Shown here piece by piece: positions 271 to 63,600 of a stretch of DNA of 64,000 nucleotides (position 1 is the stretch's first letter; each line of letters starts with the position of its first letter). The translations under genes were made by a program, and so were the position numbers. Origin of the DNA: Chiloscyllium plagiosum (Eukaryota); the NCBI RefSeq assembly GCF_004010195.1, contig NC_057759.1, positions 7,893,022 through 7,957,021 of the forward strand. The letters are read 5' to 3'. The notes under the pieces were generated by a model. The model saw only the letters and a list, made by a program, of their open reading frames with translations, was not told the DNA's origin and did not search any database.

Positions 271-862
271 AAAAGAATGGAGGCTTCTGTCAGTATAGGC
301 AGGCTGGGAGTTCAGGGGTTGTCAAAAGTCTGATAACAGCAGGAAAGAAGCTGTTCTTGAATCAGTTCGTCCATGTAGTTAAACATTAGTATCTGGGTTG
401 GGGTCCTTGATTGTGTTGGCTGTTTTCCCAAAGCCGTGGGAAGTAAAGGCAGAATCAATGGATAGAAGGCTGGTTTAAGTGATGGATTGGGCTGCATTCG
501 CAATTTTCTGTAATTTCTTGCAGTCTTGGGCAGAGCAGTTGCCATGCATGCTGTGGTGCATTCTGATAGGATGCTATCTATGGTGCATTTGTAAAAATTG
601 GTAAGAGTCATTGAGGACATGCCAAATTTCCTTCGGCTTCTGAGGAAGTAGAGGCATTGGTATGCTTTCTGGACTGTAGCATCGATTCAAATGGACCAGA
701 ATAGATCGTTGGTGATAATTACTCCTAGGAACTTGTAGTTCTCGACCATCTCCATCTCAGCACCATTGATATAGATAGGGACATGACCGCCCCCCCCCCC
801 CCCTCACTATACTTCCTGAAGTTGATTACCACCTCCTTTGTTTTGTTTACATTGAGGGAGAG

Positions 863-1077
863 TCGAGAGTGTGGTGCTGGAAAAGCACAGTAGGTCAGGC
901 CGAAGCCGAGGAGCAGGAGAATCGACGTTTCGGGCATAAGCCCTTCATCAGGAGTTGAGCGGAGAATCCGGAAATGGCAATTCTCCTGTTCCTCTGATGC
1001 TGCCTGATATGTGCTTTTCCAGCACCACACTCTTGACTCTGATCTACAGTATCTGCAGTCGTCACTTTCTTTTACTG
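863..1077. mobile_element. Penelope-like (family 1) inverted-repeat insert A
   Basis: Two inverted arms (GTGTGGTGCTGGAAAAGCAC / GTGCTTTTCCAGCACCACAC); TSD ACATTGAGGGAGAG at 849-862 and 1078-1091. Confidence 0.8.
919..953 (-). ncRNA. Minimal type I hammerhead ribozyme motif (PLE type), core intact
   Basis: Reverse complement reads tcCTGATGA-a-GGGC-ttat-GCCC-GAAAC-GTC-gattc; helix I is short and imperfect. Confidence 0.7.
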
Positions 1078-1289
1078 ACATTGAGGGAGAGATTGTCGTC
1101 TTTATACAGTGCCACTAAGTTCTCTGCCTTTTCTTCTGTCCTCTTTTCCATCTATGTGTGGAGCCATAGGCTGTGGTGGGATCCTAAACACATATATCTC
1201 GTCAGTATTTGCTATGGAACAAGTCATGGAAGCTAGAGATCTACCATGGGGAAAAGATTCTCATGATCTGCACTATATATGTCTCTCTT

Positions 1290-3170: not shown

Positions 3171-3586
3171 AGGGGAGGAGGGAAATCTTTCCACTTTCTA
3201 AAATTGTCAGATCTGGTGTTGTCTTTACCTTTGCTTGCACCATGTCAACATAGTTTCTGTTGTAGGATGCTCATTCTCCAGTTCACTTGAAGACAACTTT
3301 AACTTCTCTTAACTCACAATGCTCCTGGCAAAACCCATGCACTTCTTCCCTGAACATGCCTCTTTTGATGGGTTCTTAGCCACTTTCTTTACTCCGCTTT
3401 CTTATTTTTGAAGTGTCTTTGGGTGTTTCTTTCTCTGAATGGTAGATATACTTGTGCTGTTTTGTTGTTTTGCTGTTTCACTTGTCTAATGACTTCACTT
3501 ACGACTGCTTCTAATTTGTTGTTCAGGCTCCAACTATGTTAAATTATATTTGATATTTTTAACTGTGCAAACTTTGATTTTTACAG

Positions 3587-3682
3587 GGTGCATCAGCTGA
3601 TAGGAGTCAATGGCGAGAACCCACTAGGACACACGATGGTTTATGTTCATTGTATGAGGCAGCTCTGTGCCTCTTTGAAGAG
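3587..3682 (+). CDS. HERC1: HERC1 exon W1 (96 nt)
   Basis: ttacag|GGT...GAAGAG|gtttgt; [32 protein letters not shown]. Confidence 0.9.
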
Positions 3683-6600: not shown

Positions 6601-9600
6601 TGGCCTGAAGGGTCTGTTTTTGCGCTGTACATCTTATGCCTCATAGTGTTGAGTTCGTCAGCAAAGAGGAGCTCATTCTGAAGAATGGCGACCATTTACT
6701 CTGGCAGCGTAGCAGAGAGGCCTTCTACATGGCCGATGACGGGACCACTTTAGAAGGACTGTGAAGTTGAACGCATTTTCTTTATTTCTTCATTTTTCTG
6801 CCTTGGTGCTGTATACTGTTATGTGTTTTAGGATGGTGTTGGAGAGTGGCGACATTCTACATCACTTTTCACTGTATTTTGTAACAAATTACATGTGATT
6901 ATAAATCAGTTAAATCAAGGTATATAAGACTATGAGCCAGATGTTTGAAATTGTGATTACAATTGGTGGTTGCTTTTGAATGATGCCGACTCAGTGGGCT
7001 GAAGAGCATTTTTCTGAGCTGTAAATCTCTATGACTCTATCGCCAAACAAGAATTGTGTATTGAATGTAGTCTTTGTAACACATGAAATGTTCCTTATTG
7101 CAGGTCACTTACATGGAAATTACGTTGTGCTGATGAAATAATTCATTTTCATGTCAGCTAATTTATGTATTTACCCTTCCTAGCAATATTTTGGTAAAAT
7201 ATTTGGCTGTCTTGTTGTGAGAATGCATAGAATATTAAGAACTTTAATTTAATAAGTAAGGAGGCATGGGATACAGAGAAATCTGGCTATCTGGATACAA
7301 AATTAGCTGGCGCATAGAAGACAGAGTGATGGAAACCAGTGGTGTTCTGCTGGGATCAGTTTGGGACCTCTGTCCTTTGTGATTTTCATAAATGACTTAG
7401 ATGAGGAAGTGGAAGAGTGGGTTGGTAAGTTTGCCGATGACATGAAGGTTGGTGGATTTGTGGGTGTATGGAGGGCTGTTGAATGTTGCAACAGAGCATT
7501 GACAGGATGGAGAACTGGGCAGCTAAGTGATAGTTGGAGTTCAACCTGGAACAGTGTGAAGTCATTCACTCTGGAAGGTCAAATTTGAATGCAGAATACA
7601 GGGTTAAAGGCAGGATTTGTGGCAGTGTGGAGGATCAGAGGGATCTTGGGGTCCATGTCCATAGATCCATCAAAGTTGCCACCCAAATTGAAAGGATTGT
7701 TAAGAAGGTGTATGGTGTGTTGCCTTTCATTAGCAGTGGGATTGAGTTCAAGAGCTACGAGGTTATGCTGCAACTCTATAGAGCCCTGGTAAGACCACAC
7801 TTGAGATATTGTGTTCAGTTCTGATTGGCTCATTATTGGAAAGATGTGGAAGTTTTAAAGAGGGTGCAGAGGAGATTTACCAGGATGCTGCCTCGACTGG
7901 AGGGCATATCTAATGAAGAAAGGTTGAGGGAGCTTGGGCTGTTCTCATTGGAGCAAAGAAGAATGAGAGGTGACTTGGTAGAGGTGTATAAGGTGTTGAG
8001 AGGCATAGACAAAGGGCATAGCCAGAGACTTTTTCCCAGAACGGAAAGGTCAAGCATGTGGGGACATAATTTTAAGGTAATTGGAGAAAAGTTTGGTGGA
8101 GATGTCATAAATAGGTTCTTTACACAGAATGGTGGGCGCATGGAATACACTGCGAGCCATGATACTAGATTCAGATACATTAGGGACATGTAAACAACTC
8201 TTGGAAAGGCACATGGAAGGTTGTACAATGAGGGGTATGTAGGTTAGTCTGGTCTTAGAGTAGGATAAAAGCCTGCCACAACATCGAGGGCCAAAGGGTT
8301 TGTACAGTGCTGCACTGTGCTACATTTGTGTTTGTAGCAGCAAATGTATGCAAGCAATGTGGGTCTGAGAAGGTCAATAAAATAAATTGCCAACCTGTGG
8401 TGATCAGGTTGAGGATGAGATATTCAGACATAACACACTAGTACAGCACAGTACAGGCCCTTCAGGCCTTGACATTGTGCCGGCCTTTTATCCTCCTCTA
8501 AGATCAAACTAACCTCCCTGGTGAAGAGTTTATGCTTGAAACGTCAACTCTCCTGCTGCCTGATCTGCTGTGCTTCTCCAGCACCACACGTTTTGACTCT
8601 GATCTCCAGCATCTGCCTATCCAGACACATGAAAAGAAGTGAAAGGAATTGTATTGTAATTTATTTGAATTGTTGATTTAAGTTGACAAATGGGGAATAT
8701 TGAAATGTGAAATAACAGCCCAAAAGAAAAGTAATCTGTTAGCTTAAAATACAAAGACAGATCTGTGATGCCTTCATTGGATGCATGCAGTTGTGGATGA
8801 GGCCCAGCAAGGATTGACCTCATCCTATTTAATTGGATTTGTAGAACAAATCTTGCCTAAGCGCAAACTCAAATCCATTTAATGTTAGAGGCAGTAATAG
8901 TAGAATATTCATGCTGGCTATTAAAACATGATCAAGAAATGATTGATTTAAGAACACAGCAGTGTAAGTAGGCGTTCAGTCCATTGAACCTGTTCCATCA
9001 TACAGTATGTCATACTGATGCACTTTAATGACTTTTACTCACCCCAATCTCAACTTCTGTATGTCACTGATAATCAGAAATCTATCAATCTCTGCTTTTA
9101 AGTATACTTAAAGACTGAGCCTCCACAGCCTTCTGTTGTAGAGAATTTCAAAGATTCACAGTCCTCTGAGGAAAATAATTTCTCCTTATCTCTGACCCAA
9201 AATGAGCATCTTTCTTATTTTTAAATTGTGCCCCTTGGCTCTAGACTTACCAACCAGATGAAACACTTTTACCTGCATCTGCCTTATTCATCCCTGTATT
9301 CTGTAGGTTTCAATGAGATCACCACTCATTCTTTGAAATTGCAGAAAATACAGATACATGTTGTTTTCCATAGGACAGCCCCACCATCCTGGGACCAGTC
9401 TGATGAACCTCTGTGGCATTCCTCTGTGGAAATAATATTTTTCTCAAGCTAAGAAGACTAAAGCTTCTCAGTACTCCAGGTGTAATCTGACCAAGTCCTT
9501 ATACAATTGAAGCAAGAATTCATTATTGCAGTATTCCAATTCTGTAACATAAAGGCAAACATTCCGTTAAGCTCCCTAATAGCTTCTTACACCAGCGTAT

Positions 9601-12600: not shown

Positions 12601-15600
12601 TTCATATTCAATTCTTATTTTCTTTCACACTTCTTTGTATTTTATAAACTTCAAATCCTCTGAATTACTGCTATTTCTGGAAACCTTAGAGACCTTTTGT
12701 TTTAACCTTGCACAATCCTGAATTTCCTTTGTTAGCTAGATTGATTGAAGTTTTTGAATTTTTGTCCCACAGCGAGAGATCTCTATGTCCGTGTACATAG
12801 ATCCCTGAAAGTTCCCACCCAGTTTGATAGGGTTGTTAAGAAGGCATATGGTGTGTTAGCTTTCATTAGTAGACATGATTTGGAGATGCCAGTGTTGGAC
12901 TGGGGTGTACAAAGTTAAAAATCACACAACACCAGGTTATAGTCCAACAGGTTTAATTGGAAGCACATTAGCTTTCGGAGCGTTGCTCCTTCATCAGGTG
13001 ATAGTGGAGGGCTCAATCCTAACGCACAGAATTTATAGCAAAGATTTACAGTGTGATGTAACTGAAATTATACATTGAAAAATTGATTGTTAAGTCTTTC
13101 ATCTGTTAGAATACCATGATAGTTTCACTTCTTTCATGTGTAAATCCCAAAACCTTTTTTTAAAAAGTTGCATTCTCGGGTTAGCTGTTAACAATGGTGA
13201 TAGCTAGACAATATGTTGAAGGCGTTAGCCCCCTGTGTTCTCTGTCTATGCCATGATGTTTAGATTGATTCTAATCTAAAAAGTGAGATAACGGAATGCA
13301 GTTTTTGAGCAAAGTACAATGTAACCCTGCAAGTACAAATTCACCCTACAAAATATGTGAGCATGTGGGTCTTTGTCTGTGTGTGTGTGTCTGTCTGTCT
13401 GTCTGTCTGGGTTGGGGGTTGTGAGTATGAGAAAGTGTATGTGTGTGTGTAGCGAGTGTAGAGTGTCTTAAGTCTGTGAGGGAGTGCATGTGTGAGTGTG
13501 GGGGTGTGTGTGGGTGTCTGTGTGCGCGTCTGTGTATATGTGTGTCCGTGTGTATAGGAGTGCCTGTATGTGTGTGCGAGTGTGTATGTAGGAGTATCTG
13601 TGTGCGTGTATAGTGCAATAGTAGTCACCTGTAATGTGACATGAACCCAAGGTTCCGGTTGAGGCCCTCCCTATGGGTACCAAACTTAGCTATCAGCCTC
13701 TGCTTGGCCACTTTTTACTGCTGCCTGTCCCGAAGTCCGCCTTGGAGGATGGTCACCCGAAGATCCGAGGTCGAATGTCCTGGACCACTGAAGTGTTCCC
13801 CAACTGGGAGGGAACACTCCTGTCTGTTGATTGTTGTGCGATGCCCATTCAACCGTTGTCGTAGCCTTTGCTCGGTTTCTCCAATGTACCATACCATCCT
13901 TGCCTGCAACGTTGTCTATCTTATTCCTTATGGTTTGAAGTGTGTCTACTTCAACGTGAGAAGTATACAAAATAAGGTAGTTGAGCTTGCAGCATGGAGA
14001 GGTACCTGGGATTTTGATGCTTTGGCCACTTTGGAGACATGGATAGAGCAGGGTGAGGAATAGATGTTGAAGGTTCCAGGCTTTAGATCTTGCATTAAGA
14101 ACAGGCAAGGCGGTAAAGGAGGGGGAGGTATGGCCTTGTTAGTCAAGGATAGTTTAACGGTGGTTGAAAGAACTTTTGATTAGGACTCGTCTACTGAGAT
14201 TAGAAACAGGAGAGGAGAGGTCACACTGTTTGGAGTTTTTTTTATAGGCCTCCACAGAGTTCCAGGGAAGTGGGGGAGAGGATTGGCAAAATGATTCTGG
14301 GTAAGAGGGAAAGGAAAAGGGTGGTCATTATGGGGGACTTGAACTTCCCCAACCTTGACTGGAAATGCTATAACTCTAGTACGTCAGATGAATCAGTTTT
14401 TGTCCAGTGTGTACAGGAGGGTTTCCTGACACAGTATGTCAAACCACAACCTTCCCTTGTGGTTGGAGGGTTCCTAGGCGGTTGGGTTGGTTGGTTGGTT
14501 CAGCCCCATGGCTGAACACTTTAACTCCCCCTCCCACTCCGCCGAGGACATGCAGGTCCTTGGCCTCCTCCGTCGCCAGACCATGGCAACATGACGCCTG
14601 TAGGAAGAGTGCCTCATCTTCCGCTGAGGAACCCTCCAACCACAAGGGATGAATGCAGATTTCTCCAGCTTTCACATTTCCACTCCCCCCACCTTATCTC
14701 AGTCCCAATCTCAGCACCGCCTTCTTGATCTGCAATCTTCTTCCCGACCTCTCCGCCCCCACCCCCTCTCCGGCCTATCACCCTCACCTTAACCTCCTTC
14801 CACCATCGCATTCCCAACGCCCCTCCCCCAAGTCCCTCCTCCCTCCCTTTTATCTTGGCCTGCTTGGCACCCCTTCCTCATTCCTGAAGAAGGGCTAATG
14901 CCCGAAACGTTGATTCTCCTGTTCCTTTGATGCTGCCTGACCTGCTGCGCTTTTCCAGCAACACATTTTTCAGCTCTGATCTCCAGCATCTGCAGTCCTC
15001 ACTTTCTCCCTGCAAATTTACTAACTAAACCTCTTATACTCGCATCCGAATCATTTATATAAATGACAAAAAGTAGTGGACCCAGTACTGATCCTTGTGA
15101 AACTCCACTGGTCACAGGCCTCCAGTCTGAAAAACAGCCCTCCACCACCACCACCCTCTGTCATCTCTCCCTGTTCTGTATCCGAATGGCTAGTTCTCCC
15201 TGTATTCCATGAGATTTAAGTTTGCTAAACAGTCTCCCATGGGGAATCTCGTCACACGCCTTACTGAAGTCCATATAGATCATGTCCACAGCTCTGCTCT
15301 CATCTGTCGTCTTTGTTACTTCTTCAAAAAAACTCAACCAAGTTTGTGAGACATGATTTTCCATACACAAAGCCATGTTGACTATCCCTAATCAGTCCTT
15401 GCCTTTCCAAATACATGTACATCCTGTCCCACAGGATTCCCTCCAACAACTTCTCTACCACCGACATCAGGCTCACTGGTCTATAGTTCCCTGGCTTGTG
15501 CTTTCCACCTTTCCTAAACAGTGGCTCCACATTACCCAAACTCACCGGCATCTCATCTGTGACTATCAATGATACAAATATCTCAGCAATGGGCCCAGCA

Positions 15601-18600
15601 GTCACTTCCCTAGTTTCCTGCAGGAATCTAAGGTATACCTGATTAGGTCCTGGGGATTTACCCATCTTTTTGTGTTTCAGGACATCCAGCACTTCCTCCT
15701 GTGTATTATGGACATTTTTCAAGATGTCACCATCTATTTCCCTCCATTCCGTCTTCCACGTCCTTCCCCACAGTAAACACTTATGCAAAATACTCGTTTA
15801 GTATCTCCCCCATCTCCTGCGGCTCCACACAAAGGCTGCCCTGCTGATCTTTGAGGGGCTCTATGCTCTCCCTAGTTGCCCTTCTTGTCCTTAGTATATT
15901 TGTAAAAGCCCTTTGGATTCTCACTAATCCTATTTACCAAAGCTATCTCATGTCCCCTTTTTCCCTGATTTCCCTCGTAACACCGTAACAGGAATATACT
16001 GTCTCTAGACTCTCGTTATCTCATTTCTGAAGGCTTCCCATTTTCCAGCCATTCCTTTACCTGCAAACATCTGCCCCCAATCAGCTTTTGAAAGTTCTTG
16101 CCTAATACTGTCAAAATTAGCCTTCCTCCAATTTAGAACTTGAACTTTTACATCTGGTCTATCCTTTTCCATTGCTATTTTTAAACTAATACAGTTTTGT
16201 CATTTGGGCTTTTACTTCTTATCGTTCTGGAAAGACCGTTTTTAAAAAATCTTTGCCATTGGGTTAGGTGTTTATCCATGTCACTCATGTTAGTCGAGGA
16301 GTAAATTGAATCCTGACGGTATTGAAACAAAAACAAAAATTGATGGAAAAGCTCAGCACGTCTGATAGCATCTGTGGAGAGAAATCAGTGTTAACATTTT
16401 GGGTCAGGTGACCTTTCCTCCGAACTGATGGTAGCTAAGAAAATGTAATTTTATATGCAGAAGATAGGGTTGGGGGGGGGGTAAGAAGTAGACAATAAGT
16501 GCAGATAGAGCCCAAAGAGAAAGAAGGACAGTTGGACAGACAAAGGAGTGGATAATGATCTGCCTGTGGGGGTGTTTAGCAACTAATGGGGATTGTTATT
16601 GGCTAACAATGGGTTGTATGTAACTGCAGACTGTGATAAAAGGCCTGATGTATGGGGGTTTTGGTGAGGATGTGGGAGAGTGAAGGCCCTAAGGTTTTTG
16701 AACTCAATTTTGAGTCCAAAAGACTGCAGGATCCCCAAGTGGAAGGTCCTGTTAACAACTGTGTTGGGGAATCATCTGTTGAAGACGAAGGTCGATATTT
16801 CAGAGGTTCCCTTGTCCTGATGATTTTGGTTGGTTAACTTTTGCTCTGAATAAATGACAGGTTAGGGACGTGATTTTTTTTAATCTATAATTTGATCAGC
16901 TTTTCTTTAACTGGAAGGAATAGGTGAATATAATAATTGACTTTTAAATTCAATGACCTTTGCTATGGTTCATGGATTTTAATTTCTTTCTCACTTAGAT
17001 TGAAGCTGGACAGTATTGCACATTTGTCATTTCATCTGATGGATCAGTAAGAGCCTGTGGCAAGGGCAGTTATGGAAGGCTTGGTCTGGGTGATTCAAAT
17101 AACCAGTCCACCTTGAAAAAGTTAACTTTTGAACCACATCGAGCTATCAAAAAAATCTCTTCATCAAAAGGTTCTGATGGGCATACGCTAGCCTTTACTA
17201 CAGAAGGAGAAGTGTTTAGTTGGGGTGATGGTGACTATGGAAAACTTGGACATGGAAACAGTTCCACGCAGAAATATCCCAAACTTATTCAGGGACCATT
17301 ACAAGGAAAAGTAAGTGCTCAATTATTCTAAGAATTTCCAGTAAAGAATTGGATTCAGTATAACTTCTTTCTCTTCAAGAATTTGAGAGAGAATAATTGT
17401 AATAAATAATAACTCATAATTCAAAATGAAATGTGTTCTGTGACAGCTTGAGTTGACATCAATTTCTAAATGTCGTTTTTAAAGGCCGTTGTATGTGTCT
17501 CTGCTGGCTATAGACACAGTGCAGCTGTTACGGAAGATGGCGAATTGTACAGCTGGGGTGAAGGGGACTTTGGGAGGTTAGGTAAGATTTCAATTTTTCA
17601 TTGTATATAACCCAGCTTTGACTAAGAAAAAGATTTGACAAAGCTGTGACAAAGCAGTCTTGAAACTTAGGAATGATGAGTCAGAGTAGGCAATTCGGTC
17701 CTTTGAACCTGCTCGCACATACCAGTGGGAGATCGAGAGTGTGGCGTGCCCGCAAGAGAGCAAGAGTGTGCGCACGAGCCAGCGGGAGAGCGAGAGTTAG
17801 TGTGCGGGTGTTTTTGAGAGAGCAAGGGTGTGTGGGTGCACGTCCGTGCACCTGCGGGAGAGCAAGAGTGAGCACTCGCATGTGTCTGAGTGAGATTGCC
17901 TGGGCGCGCGCCTTCGATTGAGCAAGAGTGCATGTGTGCTTGCCTCTGGGAGAGCGGGAGTGTGCGTGCACCCCTGTTGAAGAGCAAGATTGCGTGGGCA
18001 CACACTTCTGAAAGAGCGAGATTGTGTATGCGCATGCGTCTCCAAGAGAGTGAGAGTGCACGAATGTGCATGCGCGCGCATCTCCAAGACAGTGTGCATG
18101 CACATGAGCTTCCGAGCAAGTGAGAATGTTTGCGCCTGCGCGGGTAGGAGAGTGCCTGTGGGAGAGCGAGAGTGCGTGCACCTGTGCATGCCAGCAGGAG
18201 AGCACGAGGGTGCAGTCGTGCATATGCCTGCGGGAGAGCAACATAGCAAAGGATGTGGGTGTGCACACGAGAGAGCAAGAGGTCGCACGCACACCAGTGG
18301 GATAGCAAGAGTGCGTGCACGCTTGCAGGAGAGTGAGAGTGCGCGCATCTCTGTGCGCTCAGTAGGAGAGTGAGCGAGAGTGCACATGCCTGCAGGAGAA
18401 CAGAAGTGCCTGTGGGAGAGCGAGAGGGTGCGCATGCATCCCAGCAGGAGAGTGAACGAGAGTGAGATGGCACACATCTGCGGCAGAATTGTTGTCAAAA
18501 CAACAACTAACTCAGGTATCCATTTCCCAGCCAATGTTATACTTTCAGTACACTCTGCGATTACTAGCTAGTCATCACAGGTGTTTGTCAGCTCTCAGTT

Positions 18601-39600: not shown

Positions 39601-42600
39601 CCCAATTTCTTGCACTTGTCCCATATACTTGAATGTTATGAAGTTTCAAGTGCTCATCCAGATATTTTTAAAATGTTCTAAGGTTTCTGGCCTCTAGTAC
39701 ATTCCCAGGTTCCTGTGTCCCAGATTCTCTCAAATCTCTTCTGAATCTCCTGCCCCTTAGCTGACATTCCTTCGTGATTGACCCCCTCAACCAAGGGCAA
39801 CAGCTGCTCCTTACTCATCATGTTGTTATCCCTTATAATCTTATGCACTTCAATCAGCCTTCTCCATTCTAAAGAAAATAATCAAAGCCTATCTAGCCTC
39901 CCTACAGCTGCATTGCTCCATCCCAGGCAACATCCTGGTGAACCTCCTCTGTACCCACTGTAGTACTATCACATCTTTCCCTAGTGAAGTGACCAGCACT
40001 TCCAGCTTTGCCTTAACTAACTCTCTATAACTCCAACACTACCTCCTTGTTCTTGTACTCAATGCCATGACAGATGAAAGCAAGTCTCATTCCTGATGAA
40101 GGACTTATGCCTGAAACATCGATTCTCCTGCTTCTCGGATGCTGCCTGACCTGCTGTCCTTTTTCAGCACCACACTTTCGACTCTGATCTCCGGCATCTG
40201 CAGTCCTCATTTTCTCCCGATGAAAGCAAGTGTCTCATATGCCTCCTTCACAATCCTATTTTCATGCTGTGCCAACTTCAGGGATCTGTGAATATCCCGA
40301 AGATCCCTCTGTTCCTCTAAGCTACCCAATGTAGCATTCACTAAATACTACTTTATCTTGTTTCTTCCCAAGTGCATTATCTCACTTAATACCATCTGCC
40401 ACTTGCTTGCTCATCTGATCATCCTATCTGTATTTTACTGTGACCTATAACCATCTTCCTCACTATTACCTACTCTACCAATCTTGGTGTCATCTGCAAA
40501 TTTGCTTAACAGTCCCCCCACATTTTCAACTGTATCATTTATGGATATAACCAATAATAAGGGTCCCATGTAATAATTCTTGTGGTACACCTCAGGACAT
40601 TGGCCTCCAGTCACTCGAACAGCCTTCTACCACTACCCTTTGTGTCTTATTACTGGGCCAGTTTCTGATCAACCTCACCATGTTTCCGTCACTTCTATGT
40701 GCTTTAACCTTCTCAATCAGTCTCCCACATGGAACCGTGTCAAAAGCTTTGCTAAAATCCATATAAACTACATCGATTGAACTTCCCTCATCCATACATT
40801 TGATTACATGTCCAAAACATTCTAACATTTCTAAGGCCTTGCTTCTGATAAAGCCATGTTGGCTATCTGTAATTAACCCATGCCTTTCCAAGTGGGTATT
40901 AATTTGTGCCTTCAGAATTTTTTTGCAATAGTTTCCCTACCAGTGACTTGAGACTCGCTGCTTTTCTCATCTGGCAAGTTTAGTTGAGCCAGCGAAGTTG
41001 CCACTGTTGACTGCTGGAATACTTGGGTGATGTGCCTATGAGAAGGCTGTCAAGTTGAAGATTTTTGTCTGTCCAGGAGGTGCCAAAAATATGTCATTAA
41101 AATTGAAGATCAAAACTTGAGCTTCCTTTTTTTATGGCTGCAAGCTATTTATTTAGAAAATCATAGGATTCCTACAATATTGCACCAAACCATTCAGTCT
41201 ATTAAGTCCACACCAACTCTCTAAATTGCATCACACTGAGACCAAACCCCTACACTATCCCTGTAACCCTGTATTTTCCATGACCAATCTAACTAATCCA
41301 CACATCTTTGAACTGTGGGTGGAAATTGGAGCACCTGGAGGAAACCGACGCAGACTCTGGGAGAAGGTGCAGACTCCAAATTGACTGTCACCTGAGACTG
41401 GAATCGAACCTGCGTCCCTGCAGTGCTAACCACTGAGCCACCATGCTGCCCCATTCTTCACAGCTGAGAATGGAGGTCATTGTTGTCGTGAGAGTGAGCT
41501 TATTGTTTTTCCAAACATGTTTTGAACTTAACAAAAATGGGAACTGCTTTTCATGTTTAGTGCTGAGTTCTTCATCAATTAATGTTGCCATGAATCTGTT
41601 GATCACTTGGACACAAACACTTCATATAAACTGTCATCTCTCATTCTGTGTTTGACTGTCCTAAAGCTCTGGCATGGTTGACTTAAATGCGATCCATCAT
41701 CACTTGAAATGGAAAACACCATTGCTGCCTTAGTAAACAGGCATACAGCAAGAACAGAATTGTAGAAGATTTATTCTGTCGGATATATATGATGCAAACA
41801 ATGTCTTTTGAATAAAAAGAACTAACATAAGAGCTTGAAACTTCCACAGATTAATCTCATTCTTCAACAGGCATTCTTCAAGCTTCTGCAGGACTTGTTT
41901 TATTTAACTGATTGAATGGCTGCCCTTGTTTTCCTGTTGTGGTGAAAGAAAACATCTTTCTCACTTGCCTGCAAAGGGAAGTAATTAGGTCAATGTGGTG
42001 GTTCATGGCCTGTCAGTATTTATTAAGTGAACGGCTAAAGGTTTTAATTTGTGACTGGTCAAACAAATTTCCCCTTGAAGTTTTTGCCCAGAACTTAATT
42101 AGAGAGGTGATAGAAAAGGGTCAGTTTCTTTCTGGGGCCAATCTACCTACTTAGTTGCCCTCCCTCCTCACCTTTCAGTGAGGAAAAAAAATCATACCCC
42201 AGTTGTGTTTACAATGAATGATGAACAGTGTTTTGTGCATTTTTTTGGTTTTGAAGGAACAATTGAATCAGCTCAAATTAGTTTGGAGAAAAAGAAGTTA
42301 CCTCTTGTTATCTATGAAATGTTTATATTGATTTTGAAGAAAGTGTGAAACATAATTGTTTAGATGTATGTACCTGTATACTTTAAAATAGACTTGAGTT
42401 TTTTCTTGGTGTTTTAGGCTGTTATAGAGACATTGTCTGTTGGCGCTACAATGTTACTTCCACCATTGCGAGAAAGAATGGAGCTGCTACATTCGCTACT
42501 TCCACAGGGCCCTGATAGATGGGAAAGTTTAACTAAAGGACAAGTAAGAATTTTTTTTTTTTGGATTTTGCATTGATTATTAAGATCATTAACATTGTTT

Positions 42601-45600
42601 AAAACTGAGAAACCTTGATTATCTGAATACCAGGGGCGGGTTGGGGGTCGGACCAGGGCGGTGTTGGATGCAGTGTGCTGTTGCCTAGTCTCCTGAATGG
42701 GGAGCAGTTAGCAAGTGCTCGCTGTCAATCCCATTGAACTGATGGGGGGTGAACTTCAGCAATGCTGCAGGTCCCTTACACACAAGTGTGTCTGCTCAGA
42801 ATAAACCCTGAGACACAGAGAAGGAGCAAGGCAGGCAGAGCGAGGAAAAAGAAAAGTTCAGAAAACTTCGAGTCCCAGAGGAGAGGCATTGAATCAAACC
42901 ACCAAATAATCAATTATCCGAACAAAATACTGTCTGCCCATCTTGTTCGAATAATCGAGGTTCCTCTATATTTTGTTGTGAAATTGCGAAACTATTCACA
43001 CTGACTTAACAACCTCTCTGCTGATGAAATAAGTCATTCCTAGAAATCCACCCAGGTCCCTCATTACATTTTTAAAGCTCAAAGGCAAATTTCCCTCTTT
43101 CTTCTTTGTCTTAAACAACTCAAAGCAATTCCATGTTTCTTCATAATCATTTTCTATCCCTGTAAATATTCCCATTAACCTCTTCTTCAGTGCACTAGTA
43201 CTCTGCCTGTAATGTGATGAGAATTGTCTGCTATACATTACAACTATATGTTATGTAGTGTTATTCCTTTCTGTTATATGTCAACAAATAATTGAAAACA
43301 TCCGAAAAGTATTACTTAAATTTCATTAATCCATTGGTGTGCAATGTTCTCCATTCCCCCATACATCTCAGAATCTTTCCATGTGTTATTAATTCCCTTA
43401 TCTTGATTGTTCTACCTGAACCCATTACATCTCAATTCTCTAGCTTTGTTTGCTGCCAGTTGCTAAAACGTCACATGCATCTATCCACATTTTCAGGTCC
43501 TGTGTTTAAAGGTTGTTCATATAAGTTGTGTTGTGATATCCAGATGTACTAAATAGAGCAGTTCTAGAGGCCATTTTCAGTCAATGGATTTAATTATGAT
43601 TTGTGCATCAAATTAATTTTTATATTATTTAAAAAGCAAAATGGATTTCCCTTTCTGGCTATTTGTTACTCAGATTATTTATACAATTCTTTTGACATGG
43701 TACTTTAATTGAATAACAACCTTTTTATAAATTTAACAGCCTTTTATACATACAGCAGTTGAATCCCTTTTTTCTCTTAGTAGTGATCTGATATTGTCAG
43801 AGACGTGAAGCACTGATTATAAAATTTATAACGACAGTTATTTTGAATTTTATCCAAGCACGATCAAATCTTTGTCTCCTGGAATTGTAAAATATGGTTA
43901 TGAATGTTAAAACAGTAAGCGTTCACAACAGTTGATGCTTCCCTTCATCACCTCAATTAACCTCCCATTTGTCTCCCTAAATGGTCAGACTGTTTATAGT
44001 GTCATGTACAGCATGGAAACAAACCCCTCGGTCCAACTCGTCCATGCTGACCAGATATCCCAACAAACTCTAGTCCCACCTGCCAGTACCTAGCCCCTAA
44101 CCCTCCAAACCCTTCCTATTCATATATCCATCCAGATGCCTTTTAAACGTTGCGATTGTACTAGCCTCCACCACTTCCTCTGGCAGCTCATTCCATACAC
44201 ATACCACCCTCTGAGTGAAAACGTTGCCTCTTAGGTCTCTTTTCTATCTTTCCCTTCTCGCCCTAAACCTATGCCCTCTAGTTCTGGACTCCCCACCCCA
44301 GGGAAAAGACTTTGTCTATTTATCCTATCCATGTCCCTCATGATTTTATAAACCTCTATAAGGTCACCCCTCAGCCTCCAATGCTCCAGGGAAAACAGCC
44401 CCAGCCTATTCAACCTCTCCCTATAGTTCAAATCCTCCAACCCTGGCAACATCCTTGTAAATCTTTTCTAAACCCTTTTCAGTTTCACAACATCTTTCTG
44501 AGAGGAAGGAGACCAGAATTGCACACAGTATTCCAACACTGGCTTATCTAATGTCCTGTACAGCCATAACATGACCTCCCAACTCCTGTACTCAATACTC
44601 TGACCAGTAAAGGAAAGCATACCAAACGTCGCCTTCACTATCTTATTTACCTGCGACTCCACTTTGAAGGAGCTATGAACCTGCACTCCAAGATCTCTTT
44701 GTTCAGCAACACTTACCATTAAGTGTATAATTCCTGCTAAGATTTGGTTTCCCAAAATGCAGCACCTCGCATTTATCTAGATTAAACTCCATCTGCCACT
44801 TCTCAGCCCATTGACCCATCTGATCAAGATCCCGTTGTAATCTAAGGTGACCTTCTTCACTGTCCATTGCACCTCCAATTTTGGTGTCATCAGCAAACTT
44901 ACTAACTATACATATTATGCTCACATCCAAATCATTTGTATAAATGATGAAAACTAGTGGACACAGCACCCATCCTTGTGGCACTCCACTGGTCACAGGC
45001 CTCCAGCCTGAAAAACAACCCTCCACCACCACCCTCTGTCTTCTACCTTTGAGCTAGTACTATATCCAAATGCGACCTCCACTGTTGAATGAGCATAAAT
45101 TTGCCTCTTTCGACTTGAGCTTCTCTGAACCATATTGCCAATATATTTCCTCACACTAGGTCCTGTGCACCAACCACCATGTGCTTGCTGACCTACATTT
45201 GCCTCTCGTTCAACAACATGTTCTTAAAACTTTTATCCATATTCTCAAGTGCCTCCATGACCTTTTCCTGTTTTCCTGTGTAATCTTCTCCAACCCAACA
45301 AAAATTCCCAATTTTAATTACCCTGCTGTTGCCAATCATACATTTAGTTGCTGAGGCCCTAAGTTTTAGAATTCCCTCCCTTAAAACCTGCATCTTATTT
45401 TCCTCCTTCAAAATTCCCCAAAACAAAATCTCTTTGAACAAGCTTGTGATAATTTGCCCAAATATTGTGCACTGATGTCAAGTTGTGTTTGATAATGCTG
45501 TTGTGCTAGGAAGAATCTTAAATTCATTTTAAGGTTATTTATTTTACTACATTAAATGAGCTATATAAATGCAAGTTATTTTCAAAGAGCTGTAAACAAC

Positions 45601-48600
45601 AAATCATCAAATTTACTAAATATGAACATTTTCCAGTTCATATAGCTGTAATTTGCAGTGTGGTTTAATTTGCCCAGTAATTGGCTATAGCAAAGAAAAT
45701 ATATAAACTGCAAAATTACTAACACAACCTTTTGACTTTTTAATACTAATTTGCAGTGTTTAATTGTGTAGCAGCTATGCATTGATTTAATATAAATATC
45801 ACCTTTATTTCCAGAGGATGCAATTGGATATTATTCTTACAAGCCTACAAGACCATACCCATGTAGCTTCTTTGCTGGGCTATAGCTCACCTTCTGATGT
45901 TGAAGCCACCTCTACAGGACAAAATTACAGCAGCTTCCTTGATCCCTCATTCAACTCCCAATCCAGTCATCCCGATACCCATCTGGCAGAAATCTTGATG
46001 AAGACCCTACTAAGGAATTTAGGATTCTATACTGTAAGAAGCTTTCTATTTGTTAGCAACTCTTTCAGATAAGTTCTTGCTTAATCTGTACTATAAAATC
46101 CTTAATCTGACGAGACTTGTGTTTATCTGATTTTTCTTAATTTAGCTGATTATCCTGAAGTACAGATTTTATTTTCAATTTTTTAATCAAATATTTAATT
46201 CCTGCTGGTAATGTGGGCTTGTTATATATGTTGGATATATGAATTAAGCTTTGAGCTCTTTCAGTCAAATGATTTCTTGGGAAGACTTGTTTTCTCAATT
46301 TATATTAAATGTCCATCAACATAATTTGAGGGAGTTTGGATCAAAGAAAGATAAAAGTACAACCAGAAAATTTGGGTTGCAAAATTGTGTTAAATTGAAG
46401 AAAATAGACAATTTTGTAAAATGACATGTTCTTCATTACTCTATAGGAAGACTCTACATAGGGAGGCAACGTACTCCTAAATGTTTTTTTTAGACTGCTC
46501 TCAGTCTTCTCTGTATGTTTCTTTTTAACAATTGGAAATTCTCCCATTCTACATTGTATCATGTCATTATAATTGTGTTAAATCTAGTTCATAATATTAC
46601 ACTGTTAATGCTCTTAATAGGATCAGGCTTTTGGAGAACTGGAAAAAAACAGTGACAAGCAGCTTCTGGGGACATCATCTGCAGAAAACTGCCAGCCAGC
46701 TCATTTGCATGAACTTCTGTGCTCTCTCCAGAAGCAACTCTTGGCATATTGTCACATCAACAGTGTCAGTGAGGTATAAATGTGGACCTTTACTTGGAAA
46801 ATGTAGTTTTGAGATATTTTCGGCTCATCTTTATTGATGACTTAAGTTTGTTTTTTTTCTAATTTAGAGCTCCAGTAGTGTAGCTTTATTGCACAAACAT
46901 CTACAGCTCTTACTGCCTCATGCGACTGAAATTTACTCCCGTTCTGCGACACTGTTGAAAGAAAGCTCCTGGAATGGGAGTGTCAGGGACAAGCTTCAAG
47001 GTATTGGTGACTTGTTTACTTTTACTTCTTTTTTCTTCTTTTTTTGCTGTAATAATAGAACACAGCTTCATTAGCAATTTTGTTAACTTTTTTGAAGCGA
47101 TTAAAATCTTGTAGGACTGCTCTCAGTCTTCTTTATCTCCATTAGTTTAGTCTTCCATTGCTTTGCATCAGTCTTGCCCTGCAGTAGTCCCATAGTTTAA
47201 ACACACTCTGAATAAAAAAGTTTTTTTTTTAATTTCCTTTTGAATAAGTTAGTGACTAGCTGATATTTACAGCTCTGATGCTTATCTCGCCTTTGAGTAA
47301 TCGTAATGTCTGTCAGGTTCTTTCATAAACTTAAAAAACTTTCTATCAAGTCAACTTGTAGACCTACTGAGGTCCATTTTTCATAGTTCTTGATAACCAT
47401 TTTCTTGAATGTATTTTGTCAATCATTCTTTTGTCAATCAGGAAACCAGCCTTATTTCAGTTATGTACTTTTCAGTGTTGTAATCCATTTGCTATTGTTA
47501 GTATCAATATTGAATGTAATTTCTAAAAATCAAATCTGTTGTCCCATAGTTGCAGATTCCTGAATGATCATCCACATAAGGGCATTCTGATTCCTCACAA
47601 TGGCCCACTGTTGCATTTCTTTACCACCGGACTTGTGTTTATGCTACTGCCAAGAACCTCATGTTTGCGTTGAACTGATCACAGATGTCCAAAGCCCGGA
47701 GAGTGCGCTCTCTGATTTTATGAATCTGATTTGTTGCTATCGTTCAAACTCCTTTGCTGGGTTTATGTGAATCTTATATTTGAGCCCCTCATGACTGTTG
47801 AACTGGAAAATTAAGTGGAGAATGTGTGATTTAGATGAGTGAAAATAGTAAATCCGGTCCAATCTTCAGAAATGGAATGCTTTATGCTTATTTTTCCCTG
47901 TTGTTTGTTGTAGTCTACAATGTTATAAATCAGATGGGTGGGTGGCACAGTGGCACAGTGGTTAGCACTGCTGCCTCACAGCACCAGAGACCCGGGTTCA
48001 ATTCCCGCCTCAGGCGACTGACTGTGTGGAGTTTGCACGTTCTCCCCGTGTCTGCGTGGGTTTCCTCCGGGTGCTCCGGTTTCCTCCCACAGTCCAAAGA
48101 TGTGCAGGTCAGGTGAATTGGCCATGCTAAATTGCCCGTAGTGTTAGGTAAGGGGTAAATGTAGGGTTATGGGTGGGTTACGCTTCGGCGGGTCGGTGAG
48201 GACTTGTTGGGCCAAAGGGCCTGTTTCCACACTGTTAGGTAATCTAATCAGATGAAATCTTTAGATGTTTCTTTCATATACCTTTACAGTATTGTTTGTC
48301 TTGCAGGTGTCCTGTATGGATCAGCAGCAGGGAGCATGCTGTGTCAGATCATTAACTCTTTACTGTTACTGCCTGTCTCTGTGGCACGACCATTGCTAAG
48401 CCAGCTACTAGATTTATTGCCATCATTGGATAGCTTAAACCGACTTTTACCCGCTGCGGCCCATTTAGAGGAACAGGAGTTGCAGTGGCCACTGCATGGT
48501 AAGCGATGTGCTCAGGCACTTGGATCGTATCTAATGCTGTAACTTCATAATATTGTAACCCTGGTGCATGGCAGACTGTGCTGCAGTAACAAGAAATAAG

Positions 48601-54600: not shown

Positions 54601-57600
54601 CCATCAAGCCAATTGTGTATCCAATTTGCCACTTTCCCCTGGATTCTATATGATCTAACCTCCCAGAGCAGCCTACCATGTGGAACCTTATCAAAGGCCT
54701 TACTTAAATCCATATAGATTATGTTTACTGCCCTGCCCTCATTAACCTTGCTGGTCACTTCATCAAAGAACTCTAACAAATTTGTGAGGTATGATCTCCC
54801 CCGCACAGGGCCATTCTGACTATTCCCAATCAAGCTTTGTCTTTTCAACTGCATGTATATCTTATCTATCAGGATCTTCTCAAATAACTTACCCACCACA
54901 GATGATAGGCCTACTGATCTACAGTTCCCAGGTTTTTCTTAGTAGCCCTTCTTGAATAAAGGCACAATGTTTGCAATACTCTAGTCTTCCAGGATCTTAT
55001 CCATGTCTAACAATGACGCAAAAATATCAGACAGAGCCCCTGTAATTTCTTCTCCTGCGCCTTGCAGTGTTCTTGGATATATCTGACAGGGACTAAATTT
55101 ATCCACCTTCATACATTCGAATACATCAAACATCACCTCTACTGTGAAATGGACTGTCCCCAAGATCTGACCATGAATTTCCTCCAGTTCCCAAGTCTTC
55201 ATGTCTTTAGTATGCTTTTTCGTTGAGATGAATTTTTGCTGCCTCTCTCAAAACACTCCCAGAAATTCCTGTCTTTCCTGGTAGGCTTCTCTCCCAGTTA
55301 ATTCTGGTCAGCTCCTTCCTCATGCCTCTGTAGTTGCCTTTATTTCACTGTAATACTGATTACATCTACTTCTTCTCAAATATTATGGTCACTGCCTTCT
55401 AAGGGTTCCTTCACCTTAAGCTCCCTTTTCAAATCTGCCTCATTGCACAGGGAGAGTCGAGACTGTGGTGCTGGAAGAGCACAGCAGGTCAGGCAGCATC
55501 CGTGGAGCAGGAAAATCGACGTTTCGGACATAAGCCCTTCATCAGGAGTGCCTCTTCGCACAACAATAAATCCAATATTGTCTGTTCCCTGGTGGGCTCC
55601 ACCACAAGCTGCTCTAAAAAGCCATCTCGTAGAAATTCTGCAAATTCCTTTTCTTGTAATCCACTGCCAATCCACCTGGATATTGAAATCCCCCATGATC
55701 ATAGTAACTTTGCCTTTCTTACCCGCTTCTTCTATCTCTTGGTGAATCTTATGCCTCCAATTCTGACTACTGTTTGGAGGCCTATAGATAACTTGCATTA
55801 TGTCTCCTTACCTTTGGGCATCCTCAACTCTACCCACACAGATTCTACATCATCTGACCCTGGTTTGTTTATTACTTTTGATTTCATTTCATTTTTTACT
55901 AAACAGGCAACCCCGCCACCTCAACCCACCTGCCTGTCTTTTTGATACGATGTATATCCTTGGATATTTGTGGGGGCGATGGCCCAGTGGTATTATTGCT
56001 CAACTATTAATTCAGAAACCCAGAATAATGTTCTGTGCACCTGGGTCTTTTTAGATTCACTACAGTGTGGAAATAGGCCCTTCGGCCCAACCAGTCCACA
56101 CCGACCCTCCGAAGAGTAACCCACCCAGACCCATTTCCCTCTGACTAATGCACCTAACACTATTGACAATTGAGCGTGGCCAATTCACCTGACCTGCACA
56201 TCTTTGGACTGTGGGAGTACCCTCATGCAGACACGGAGAGAACGTGCAAACTCCACACAAACAGTCTTAGACAGGCTGGAATCGAACCGGGGATGCTGGT
56301 GCTGTGAAGCAGCAGTGCGAACCACTGAGCCACAGTGCCAATGCAAACCACTGAGCCACCGTGGCGGGTTTGAATCCCGCCATGGCAGCTGGAGAAATTT
56401 GAATTCAATTTTAAAAATCTGAATTTAAGGGTCGATTGGCCATGAAACCATTGTCAATTGTAAGAAAAACCCAGCTGACTCACTAATATCCTCTAGGGAA
56501 GCAAATCTGCCATCCTTACCTGGTCTGGTCTACCTGTGACTCTGGACCCATAGCAATGTGGTTGACTCTCAACTGCCCTTTGAAATGGCCTAGCAAACCA
56601 CTCAGTTATATCAATCACTAGAAAGTCACAACAAAGAAATGAAACCGGATGGACCACCTGGCATCGACCTTGGATCCGGAAAATACAACGACAATGAAAA
56701 GACCTCCTTATCAACAGCTGTGGCCTTGTGCCGAAATTGGGAGAGATGTCTCACAGACTAGTGAAGCAAAAACTTGTCATTCTTAATGAATCATACCTTA
56801 GATAACACCCCAGACACCACCATTACCATCCCTGGCTATGTCCTGTCTCACTGGCAGGGTAGACCCAGCAGAAGTGGTAGACACAGTGGGGCTTAAGAGT
56901 TATAATTTAGCCAGAAAGGATCTAAAGGAGGGCTAAGAAGGGGACATGAGACGTTGTTGGCGGATAGGATCAAAGAAAACCCTATGGCCTTCTGTAGGCG
57001 TATCAGGGATAAAAGAATGTCAATCGTAAGATTAGGGCCAATCAAAGGTAGTAGTGGAAAGTCGTATGTGGAATCTCAGGACATAAGGGGAGTGCTTAAT
57101 GAATACTTTTCGTAGGTATTCACATTGGAAAAGGGCAGTGCCACTGAGAATAAGGAGATACAGGCTATAAGATTGGATGTGATTGAGGTTGACAAAGAGG
57201 AGGTTTTAGCAATTTTAGAAGAACTGAAATTAGATAATATCCTGGGACCGGATGGGATTTATCCTCGATTCTCTGGGAAGCCAGGGAGGAGATTACCGAG
57301 CCTTTGACTTCGATCTTTATGTCGTCATTGTCAACAGGAGTAGTACCAGAAGACTGGACAACAGCAAATATTGCTCCCTTGTTTAAGAAGGGAAGTCGGG
57401 TCAACCCTGGTAATTATAGACCACTGAGCCTTACTTTGATTGTGAGTAAGGTGTTGGAAAAGGTTATAAGAGATAGGATTTATGTTCATCTGGAAAGGAA
57501 TAAATTGAGTAGGGAATAGTCAACACGGTATTGTGAAGGGTAGGTCGTGCCTCACTAACCTTATTGAGTTCTTCGAGAAGGTGACCAAACAGGTGGGTGA

Positions 57601-59755: not shown

Positions 59756-59879
59756 GTAGGTGGGTCCACCTTTTCTGTGTAATTTAAATGTGTATCTGAC
59801 AAGCACTAGCAGGAAAAATAATAAAGTAATCAAGATGGCGACAATGCTGTACTGTTGAAGGTGTGCCCAGAACATAGTT

Positions 59880-60022
59880 TAAAAAAGAAACAGAAAGAAT
59901 TGCGAATGCTGGAAATCAGAAGCAAAAGCAGAAATTGCTGGAAAAGCTTGGTAGGTCTGACAGCATCTGTGGAGAGAAATCAGAGTTAGCATTTTAGGTC
60001 CAGTGACCTTTCCTTAGAACTG
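59880..60022 (-). mobile_element. PLE family 3 terminal repeat with a decayed hammerhead
   Basis: Homologous to 16325-16425; reverse complement agttCTAAGGA-aaggtcactggacct-AAAATGCT-aact. Confidence 0.6.
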
Positions 60023-60039
60023 CAGGTACTGGAGCAAGC

Positions 60040-60580
60040 AAGCAATAGCAAGTGACAGTGGAGGCAATGAATGGTGAGCAATGGAAGGGTTAGGGGAATT
60101 CAAGGTGTAGTGAGGGATGGAGTGAAAGGGTAACAAGAGTAGGAGCGCAAATGTTAATGAGGGAAAGAAATGAGTAGTGAGGGACAGTGGGGCCCAGTGG
60201 TGAGCAATGGGTGGCAAGGGGATAGTGAGAGATAAGAGTTATGAAGGGTTAGTTCTAGTGCCATAGACAGCTACAGCACAGAAAAATGCACATTGTATCC
60301 ACCTAATTATTCTGATCCCTTTTCCAGGACTATGCCTTGGCATTACAAGAGCACATCTAAATACCCCTAAAATATTATAAGGATTTTTACTTCTATCACC
60401 CGGTACAGGAGGGACGAGAGATAGTGAGGGTAGGCAGAATAAAAGGGAAGTGAGGGATGGGACATAAAAAGAGCAGTGAGAGGTGACAGGACAAACAGAA
60501 GTTGGGGTGGGACAATGAAAGGTAGTGGAGGGACAATGAGGATCAAAAGTAGTGAGGAATAGGGGAAGAGGTGTACGGTT
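60040..60580 (+). repeat. GA-rich low-complexity region
   Basis: Recurrent AGTGAGGGA / GGGACA motifs. Confidence 0.6.
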
Positions 60581-60671
60581 AAAATTCCAGAAGGTTAGAA
60601 TTGATGAAATGAAACTCATGTGGAATGAATGGGATGCTACAATGTGTGGGCCAAAGGAAATAGACAAATAA

Positions 60672-63600
60672 AGTCATAGAACTCTACACCGTAGAAACAG
60701 ACCCTTCAGTCCAACTCGTCCATGCTGACCAGATTTAGCTAATCCCATTTGCCAGCATTTAGCCCATATTCCCCCGAAACCCTTTCTGTTCATATACCCA
60801 TCCAGATGCCTTTTGAATGTTGTAATTGTACCAACCTCCACCATTTCCTCTGGCAGCTCATTCCATACACGCATCACCGTCTGCATGAAAAGGTTGCCCC
60901 TCAGGTCCCTTTTAAATCTTTCCCCTCTCACTTTAAACCTAGTTTTGGACTCCTCCAACCCAGGGAAAAGACCTTGGCTATTTGCCCTATCCATGCCCCT
61001 AATAATTTTATAAACCTCTAAGGTTACCCCTCAGCCTCCGATGCTCCAGAAAAAGTAACCCCAGCTTATTCAGGCTCTCCCTATAGTTCAAATGCTCCAA
61101 CCCTGTCAGAATCTTGTAAACCTTTTCTGAACCTTTTCAAGTTTCATAACATCCTTCCTTTAGCAGGGATCACAGAATTGCATGCTGTATTTCAAATATG
61201 GCCTCACCAATGTCCTATACAGCTGCAACATGACCTCCCAACTCAATGCACTAACCAGTAAGGAAAGCATACCAAATGCCTTCTTCACTATCCTTTCCAC
61301 CTGTGACTCCACTTTCAAGGAATTATGAACCTGCACTCCAAGGTCTCTTTGTTCAGCAACACTCCCCAGGACTTTACCATTAAGTGTATAAGTCCTGTCC
61401 TGATTTGCCTTTCCAAAATGCAGTACCTCATGTTTGTCTAAATTAAACTCCATCTGCCACTCCTCGGCCCATTCGCCCATCTGATTGTACTCTGAGGTAA
61501 CCTTCTTCACTGTCGAGAGTGTGGTGCTGGAAAACCACAGCAGGCCAGACAGCATCCGAGGAGCAGGAGAATCAACATTTCAGGCACAAGCCCTTCATCA
61601 GCAACCTTCTTCATTGTCCACTACATCTTCAATTTTGGTGTCATCAGCAAACTTAATAAATATACCTCTTATGTTCACATTTAAATCATTTGTATAAATG
61701 ACGAAAAGCAGTGGACCCAACACCAAACCTTGTGGCACACCACTGGTCACAGGCCTCCAGTCTTAAAAGCAACCCTCCACCACCACTATCTGTCTTCTAC
61801 CTTCGAGCCAGTTCTGTATCCAAATGGCAAGTTCTTCCTCTATTTCATGTGATCTCACTTTTGAGCGACATTGAGGAACCTTGTTGAATGCCTTACTGAA
61901 GTCCACATAAAGCACATCCACTGCTCTGTCCTCATCAATCCTCTTCATTACTACTTCAAAAAATTCAATGGAATTGGTGAGATATGATTTCCCATGCACA
62001 GGGCCACATTGACTATCGGAAATAAGTCCTTTTGCCTTTCCAAATACACACAAATTCTGACCCTCAGGATTCCTTCCAACAACCTACTCTTCAAAAACAC
62101 TGATGTCAGGCTCACTGGTCTATGGTTCCCTAGCTTTTCCTTACCATATTTCTTAAGTAGTCGTTCCCCATTAGTCAACCACCAGTCTTCTGATACCTCA
62201 CTTGTGGCTATTGATGGTACAAATATCTCAGCAAGGGGCCCAGCAATCACTTGCTTAGCTTCCCACAGAGTTCTATGATATGCCTGATCAAGTGTGAGGA
62301 TTTATCTACCTTTATGCGTTTTAAGGCGTCCAGTACCAACACCTCTGTAATATGGACATTTTTCAAAATGTCGCTATTTATTTCCCCATGTTCTCTATCT
62401 TCCATATCCTCCTCCACAGTAAACACTCATGTGAAATACTTGTTTAGTATCTTTCCTCATCTCCTGCAGTTGCACGCATAGACTGCCTTGCTGATCTTTG
62501 AGGGGCCCTATTCTCTCCCTAGTTACCCTTTTGTCCTTTATGTATTTGTAGATTCTCCTTGGCCTTATTTCCCAAAGCTCTCATGTCCCCTTTTTTGCCC
62601 TCCTGATTTCCGTCTTAGTTATATTGTACTGCCTTTATACTGTTCACAAGATTCACTCAATCCCTGCTGTCTATACCTGACCAATGCTTCCTTCTTATTT
62701 TTGACCAAAACATCAATATCTTTGGTCACCCAGCCTTGCCCTCTGCCCTAACAGGTATGTATTATCTCTGGACTCATTTTTGAAGGCTTCCCATGTTCTA
62801 GCTGTCCTTTTACATGCAAACATCCACCCCAAATCAACTTTTGAAAGTTCTTGTTTAGTACCATCAAAATTGACCTTCCTCCAATTCAGATCTTTAAATT
62901 TTAGATCTGGCCTATCCTTTTTCATCACTATTTTAAAACTAATAGAATTAAGGTCGCTGGCCCCAAAGTGCTCCCACACTGACACCTCAGTCACCTGCCC
63001 TGCCTTATTTCCCAAGAGTAGGTCAAGTTTAGCACTTTCTGTGGTAGGTACATCCACATACTGAGTGAGAAACTTTTTATGTACGCACTTAGCAATTTCC
63101 TCTCCATCCAGTCCCAATCTATATTTGGAAAGTTAAAATCTCCTATTGTTCTTACAGGTAACTGAGATCTCTGAACAAAGTTGTTTCTCAATTTCCTGTT
63201 GACTATTCGGGGAGTCTATAGTACAATCCCAAAAAAGGTGATTATACCTTTCTTTAGATTCCCTGCAATGTGCAAACAGGCCCTTCGGCCCAACAAGTCC
63301 ATACTGACCCTCTGAAGAGTAACCCACCCAGACCCATTTCCCTCTGACTAATGCACTTAACACTGTGGGCAATTTAGCATGGCCAATTCACCTGACCTGC
63401 ACATCTTTTGGACTGTGGGAGGAAACCGGAGCACCTGGAGAAAACTCATGCAGACATGGGGAGAATGTGCAAACTGTGAGGCAGCAGTGCTAACCACTGA
63501 GCCACCATGCCGTCCCAATTTCTCTTATTTCTCAATTCCACTCAAATATTTTCCCTGGACGTATTCGCAGGACAATCCTTTCTAATTATATCCGTAACAT

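Follow-up and report, generated by a model that had tools for sequence, protein, structure and literature searches.

Short solo and inverted inserts in a shark HERC gene as probable copies of the ribozyme-bearing end module of a Penelope-like element

The closest described systems are the Penelope-like elements (PLEs), and inverted pLTRs, a tail and dispersed minimal hammerheads are already published features of these elements. According to the accessible part of PMC4209133, minimal hammerheads in metazoan PLE pLTRs are mostly single and dispersed, with some pairs on opposite strands, and show low activity as dimers. The shark motif shares with them the type I core, the short helix I, the palindromic helix III and the one base between A9 and helix II, whereas its helix II has only 4 bp, its helix I carries a mismatch in the subfamilies of the window and the motif itself is defined by sequence. 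Insertion units of endonuclease-positive (EN+) PLEs, as presented in the available portions of PMC8557442 and PMC3846280, include an inverted 5'-truncated copy, a one-sided tail of 30-40 bp, TSDs and captured host DNA. Like the shark inserts, these units combine a head-to-head inverted pLTR, a tail of ~35 nt on one arm, a TSD, a C-terminal GIY-YIG and host DNA captured between or beside the pLTRs; the shark inserts differ in being mostly pLTR alone (90-250 bp), very numerous and with 5' ends at the ribozyme edge, and their TSDs measure 13-19 bp against 8-10 bp in the rotifer PLE examples of the same source portions. Inverted pLTRs and tails also figure as routine curation notes in the available part of PMC8969392, and an internal promoter in the D. 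virilis Penelope pLTR is described in that of PMC2377424.

In vitro work on the Anolis PAc Poseidon element (PMC11167929, available in part) explains the tail by two internal start sites of reverse transcription, and reports that both target strands are cut and extended and that insertion does not need ribozyme cleavage. The shark inserts likewise show a pair of fixed 3' ends with the tail between them, and would share insertion without ribozyme cleavage and the nicking and extension of both target strands; in the shark, by comparison, the tail precedes the likely ORF start codon, and the system is known here from the genome alone. Non-LTR retrozymes (PMC7229834; bioRxiv 10.64898/2026.07.22.740005; both available in part), which count one cartilaginous fish among their hosts, are likewise non-coding, with a type I hammerhead, kinship to PLE pLTRs and longer TSDs. 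However, they are head-to-tail tandems giving circular RNA, while the shark inserts are single or inverted. Among the papers listed by literature searches, none describes the shark family or its 5' pile-up. The inserts are, with good confidence, short copies (stubs) of the ribozyme-bearing end module (pLTR, with the tail present or absent) that belongs to an autonomous GIY-YIG PLE; the hairpins were likely assembled anew at each insertion, and the copies then left to decay.

The window, i.e. the whole 64-kb stretch of Chiloscyllium plagiosum DNA that was analysed, contains all nine related pieces of the original prediction at about the places given there. Arm positions are counted from the C of CUGA(U/A)GA (+1, the preceding base being 0), and the predicted cut falls after +28. 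The features are:

860-1070: hairpin 1; short arm on the minus strand (860-953, core intact), long arm on the plus strand (968-1070, without core); TSD at about 841-862 and 1070-1091
8517-8616, plus strand: solo arm with broken core, without detectable TSD
14508-14672, plus strand: remnant of the PLE endonuclease region, C-terminal part; three stops, 71% identity to the ORF of locus L295
14673-14879, plus strand: pyrimidine-rich PLE 3' region from the endonuclease remnant to the ribozyme; the match extends to -295
14880-15010, plus strand: long arm (pLTR and tail) with PLE body still attached; core intact, helix I weak
17008-17310, plus strand: host exon for an RCC1-like repeat in a large HERC ligase
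31060-31282: hairpin 2; short arm on the minus strand with broken core, long arm on the plus strand with intact core letters and broken palindrome; TSD of 14 bp
34996-35213: hairpin 3; long arm on the minus strand, short arm on the plus strand, both cores broken; TSD of 16 bp
37744-37959: hairpin 4; short arm on the minus strand, long arm on the plus strand, both cores broken; TSD of 15 bp
40086-40217, plus strand: solo long arm that keeps the core letters but has a damaged helix II and palindrome; TSD of 18 bp
55454-55550, minus strand: solo short arm, core intact; TSD of 14 bp
61514-61604, minus strand: solo short arm, core letters intact; TSD of 18 bp

The best solved matches of the host exon were HERC2 and HERC1; the gene is presumably HERC1, the name given in the original prediction. 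Since this exon lies on the plus strand, the pre-mRNA reads the plus strand. The motif CTGANGAAGGGCNNNNGCCCGAAA gave nine matches in the window at up to three mismatches, against 0.02 expected. TSDs of 14-22 bp flank seven of the nine pieces (mismatched-flank control, 0/90), while a search at 8517 and 14880 found none; the original view of the pieces as separate retrotransposition events with their own TSDs is upheld. Hairpin 1, predicted at 863-1077, is present with the narrower limits 860-1070, and its right arm lacks the core. All four hairpins carry the tail on one side only. The catalytic letters are intact in six of the 13 window arms and in two of the eight hairpin arms, and in no window hairpin are both cores intact, contrary to the expectation of a ribozyme on each strand.

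Other repeats were also observed in the window. A second PLE family is represented at 12875-13915 (minus strand) by a GIY-YIG-like fragment at 13715-13915 and, at about 12969-12997 (minus strand), by a hammerhead of its own with different helices. Worn ends of an older and more distant hammerhead-bearing family lie at 16340-16372 and 59901-59974 (minus strand), and long inverted repeat pairs unrelated to the PLE arms were found at 35508-36700 and 36745-48263 (256 nt/91% and 326 nt/94%).

The arm is the pLTR plus tail of an endonuclease-positive GIY-YIG PLE, because in other genome copies the tail extends into the start of an ORF, and because several regions combine the ORF start, the endonuclease region and a terminal arm ~4-5 kb apart, the middle reading N. 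The origin from a PLE, as originally predicted, is thus confirmed. The ORF of L295 matched the Pfam GIY-YIG domain (PF01541) at 22.8 bits, barely above the cut-off of 22.6. What had been taken for a GIY-YIG ORF at 14880 is related to this ORF (71% identical over 55 residues), but it is a remnant of 55 codons interrupted by stops. A complete autonomous copy was sought in 16 regions, none of which has a readable reverse transcriptase (RT), the RT-coding part being N in the near-complete copies examined. Comparison of the first 170 ORF residues with longer proteins yielded 249 candidates and no significant match. The N-terminal part of the L295 ORF (minus strand) has one stretch rich in Ala and Thr, as well as a proline-rich repeat of 12 residues in tandem.

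The ribozyme motif consists of the CUGANGA/GAAA core, helices I and II and a palindromic helix III. A hammerhead descriptor gave 31 hits in 653 kb against 0-1 in each of ten shuffles, which upholds the assignment as a minimal type I hammerhead; the proposed check with Rfam models returned no hammerhead family at E<=5 in the window. Helix I has the full 4 bp in the youngest subfamily; in the subfamilies of the window it has 2 bp followed by a U-U or C-U mismatch and then A-U. The hammerhead families differ from each other by matched pairs in helices I, II and III, and this covariation indicates that the fold has been kept in the source elements. Core conservation no higher than that of the flanking arm, named in the original prediction as a refuting result, was seen in the copies: of 125 hits, 54 cover the core, and in these non-CpG decay was 25/427 (5.9%) in the core and 174/2214 (7.9%) in a flank that includes subfamily-diagnostic columns, and CpG decay was 30% and 33%. 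G12, which lies within a CpG, is changed in 16 of the 54 hits, and cores were intact in 25/46. We infer that selection keeps the ribozyme only in source elements. The predicted pairing probability of helix II is 0.89-0.99 in solo arms and 0.99 in hairpin 1, whose partner arm has no core, versus 0.0 in the folds of two-core hairpins, where the hairpin fold is predicted to bury the ribozyme.

The arms are not specific to this locus. Sixty 10-kb stretches, taken in even steps from five large contigs (571 kb readable), served as background and contained 111 arm hits (194/Mb), against 14 hits (219/Mb) in the window, both counts taking in older related subfamilies. Because the two densities are close, the HERC introns are not special and HERC-specific enrichment was rejected. 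A rough extrapolation from the 111 hits gives ~0.7 million arms genome-wide. Counted as exact pattern matches, a window-derived 36-mer occurs 601 times in the genome, and the youngest subfamily 17,627 times for +41..+83, 11,537 times for +1..+43, 4,851 times for -30..+12 and 42 times for a 30-mer of the ORF start. A 43-mer of the second PLE family matches 12,141 places.

Arm ends were determined on the first 82 young arms among the 100 matches listed for the +41..+83 pattern of the youngest subfamily; as this pattern lies downstream of the cut, the 5' ends are not biased toward the core. The 3' ends fall at two sites, about +91 and about +126 (36 arms at +85..+96, 44 at +122..+135), and two arms run into the ORF. 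For the 5' ends, 47 of the 82 lie at -5..+3, the first bases of the ribozyme, ten lie upstream beyond -40, six at +25..+30 and none at the predicted cut (+29). These positions indicate that uncut RNA is the copied template and that copying mostly halts at the first base of helix I, while the ten arms that reach beyond -40 show that templates do not all begin at -3. The second PLE family likewise has two 3' sites, with 5' ends at -8..+5 in 19 of 29 arms; the pattern used there overlaps the cut site of that family and is therefore silent on ends at the cut. Twenty-four arms continuing into the ORF were scored; 12 of them extend as far as the ribozyme, and of these 12, five start exactly at -3 and eight within -6..-2. 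In L194, L197, L198, L207 and L210, partial tandems were observed in which an ORF-start segment of varying length abuts the first ribozyme bases of the next arm, as if the RT had jumped from the 5' end of the RNA to a broken RNA. A fragmented poly(A) single-cell run, linked to the shark solely through its species label, contained 811 reads; most lay on the arm, in both orientations, almost none covered the ORF start, and molecule ends did not pile up, although such a fragmented library cannot show 5' ends. A second raw RNA run gave no matching reads, and neither run counts as evidence in either direction.

Whether the common 5' stop is the 5' end of the RNA itself, with transcription starting in the initiator-like TCATTCC motif, is judged to be evenly balanced; the match to this motif is poorer in the second PLE family. 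The pile-up could instead arise because the RT drops off or switches template after passing the ribozyme, owing to the RNA fold, the upstream pyrimidine-rich tract or fold-back of the cDNA, a reading that is held to be rather doubtful. It would account for a pile-up that follows the ribozyme edge in two families whose upstream sequences differ, that is spread over ~10 nt and that is read through in the 4,851 exact matches across the site. On the other hand, a structure should stop the RT on its own 3' side and not once unwound, template jumps to ORF-internal points also depart from -3 (L194, L198, L207), and the D. virilis Penelope pLTR holds an internal promoter, as stated in the accessible text of PMC2377424.

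The 82 young arms represent 63 insertions: 28 solo arms, 24 small hairpins, two hairpins with body, four arms with body, four tandem or complex insertions (one of them a miscalled hairpin) and one at a gap. A second set of 69 loci, picked by intact core, yielded 29 hairpins. Of the 42 hairpins that could be classified, 39 pair a long arm with a short one (P=3e-9 against 0.5); two members of the offshoot lineage described below were left out, as were 12 hairpins in which one arm stops at neither site. The remaining three were scored long/long or short/short, and exact extension turns one of them into short plus long. The arms are joined head-to-head via short microhomologies, and the centres are distinct in 23/26 hairpins of the first set and 29/29 of the second, one repeat being the offshoot pair. 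TSDs of 13-19 bp flank 22 of the 24 young small hairpins; of the young solo arms, 17/28 have a TSD and in 11/28 none is detectable. Distinct centres together with the pairing of long with short point to fresh assembly per insertion, and hairpins are thus likely made anew at each insertion and not copied as a ribozyme-driven family of their own. At L016 and L017 a perfect long/long palindrome was observed in which ~20 bp of flank is also inverted and no TSD is present.

If the inserts are short copies of the PLE end module, the PLE reverse transcriptase would copy uncut RNA into stubs. The PLE protein would nick both target strands ~15 bp apart, with cDNA starting at the long site on one strand and at the short site on the other; each cDNA would extend to the 5' end of the RNA, near -3, the two would be joined through microhomology, and solo arms would be one-sided insertion events. 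The two 3' sites may correspond to the pair of internal sites at which the anole PLE enzyme begins reverse transcription in vitro.

A different course, considered unlikely, requires one priming event on RNA only: a cDNA reaching from the tail to the ribozyme edge snaps back at a short palindrome, serves as its own template and undergoes resolution at +91, still as a by-product of the PLE. It would suit the hairpins whose two arms are identical (24/40), the subfamily signature that both arms have in common in 40/40 and the centres that are often small palindromes, and self-priming has been proposed for inverted PLE junctions in the available part of PMC3846280. A test of arm discordance as a sign of two RNA templates was rejected, since the absence of mixed-subfamily hairpins (0/40) cannot separate twin priming from snapping back. 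Yet solo arms use either 3' site in similar numbers, which argues that +91 is itself a start site; several partner arms are a tail fragment or lack the inner part, and an independent short cDNA fits these equally well; and in vitro the enzyme of the anole acts on both strands, nicking and extending each (PMC11167929).

Some hairpins have nevertheless been copied again. Two young loci have a centre and flank in common, and their flank-arm junction was found at least 300 times in the genome. Six copies of this ORF-less offshoot share 2.5-2.9 kb of host-type DNA and end in an inverted arm pair. Thirty of the copies reach 41 to more than 1500 bp in the 5' direction, and in nine of these 30 the outer arm stops at the short site; short/short ends are found in 9/30 offshoot copies against 1/42 small hairpins (Fisher P=0.001). 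This pattern indicates that re-copied hairpins drag flank and often give short/short, and the at least 300 re-transposed copies show that secondary sources exist. A junction inherited from few masters is present only in this ~2.9 kb lineage and not in the small hairpins. The offshoot loci L261-L290 and L307-L312 (e.g. L307:5513-8403) contain an older PLE end inside host-type DNA. In a rough tally, variants of the offshoot centre recur in 13, 10, 3, 2, 2 and 1 copies, which suggests secondary masters. Separately, a 224-nt duplication junction that joins the ORF start back to -17 occurs at 40 places (L345-L374, e.g. L347). Most of the 30 examined are a duplicated leader continuing into the ORF and one is a short tandem array; because most extend into the ORF, this tandem was rejected as a free retrozyme.

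The original proposal, a non-coding mini-element or retrozyme of 90-220 bp that propagates itself and has its RNA processed by its own ribozymes, is very improbable: the excess of stubs over ORF-start copies (~400 to 1), their stereotyped ends, the re-transposition of ORF-less offshoots and the existence of short head-to-tail units with ribozymes speak for it, but no 5' ends lie at the cut site, centres are unique and long/short pairing strict, the arm enters a PLE ORF, helix II is predicted to be lost in two-core hairpin folds, cores decay neutrally, the 224-nt junction mostly runs into the ORF, and tandem or complex arrangements make up 0/9 window pieces and at most 4/63 young insertions.

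Under the preferred origin from the PLE end module, the stubs form a large and very young sample of PLE insertion products. They may tentatively be regarded, at somewhat less than even confidence, as a readout of PLE insertion, in which a two-headed enzyme would use one strand per RNA site and run off at a transcription start on the first base of the ribozyme. The hammerhead would then form the extreme 5' end of the mRNA, so that its cleavage would strip off the cap, and only uncut RNA would be copied. Of remaining interest are the rule of long with short arms, the possible RNA start at the ribozyme edge and the ORF-less ~2.9 kb offshoot with its at least 300 copies. The in vivo figures (two start sites, one per arm, a stagger of 13-19 bp and no ends at the cut) agree with the one PLE study done in vitro and go beyond it, and the ends of the stubs bear on the start of PLE RNA and the role of its hammerhead.
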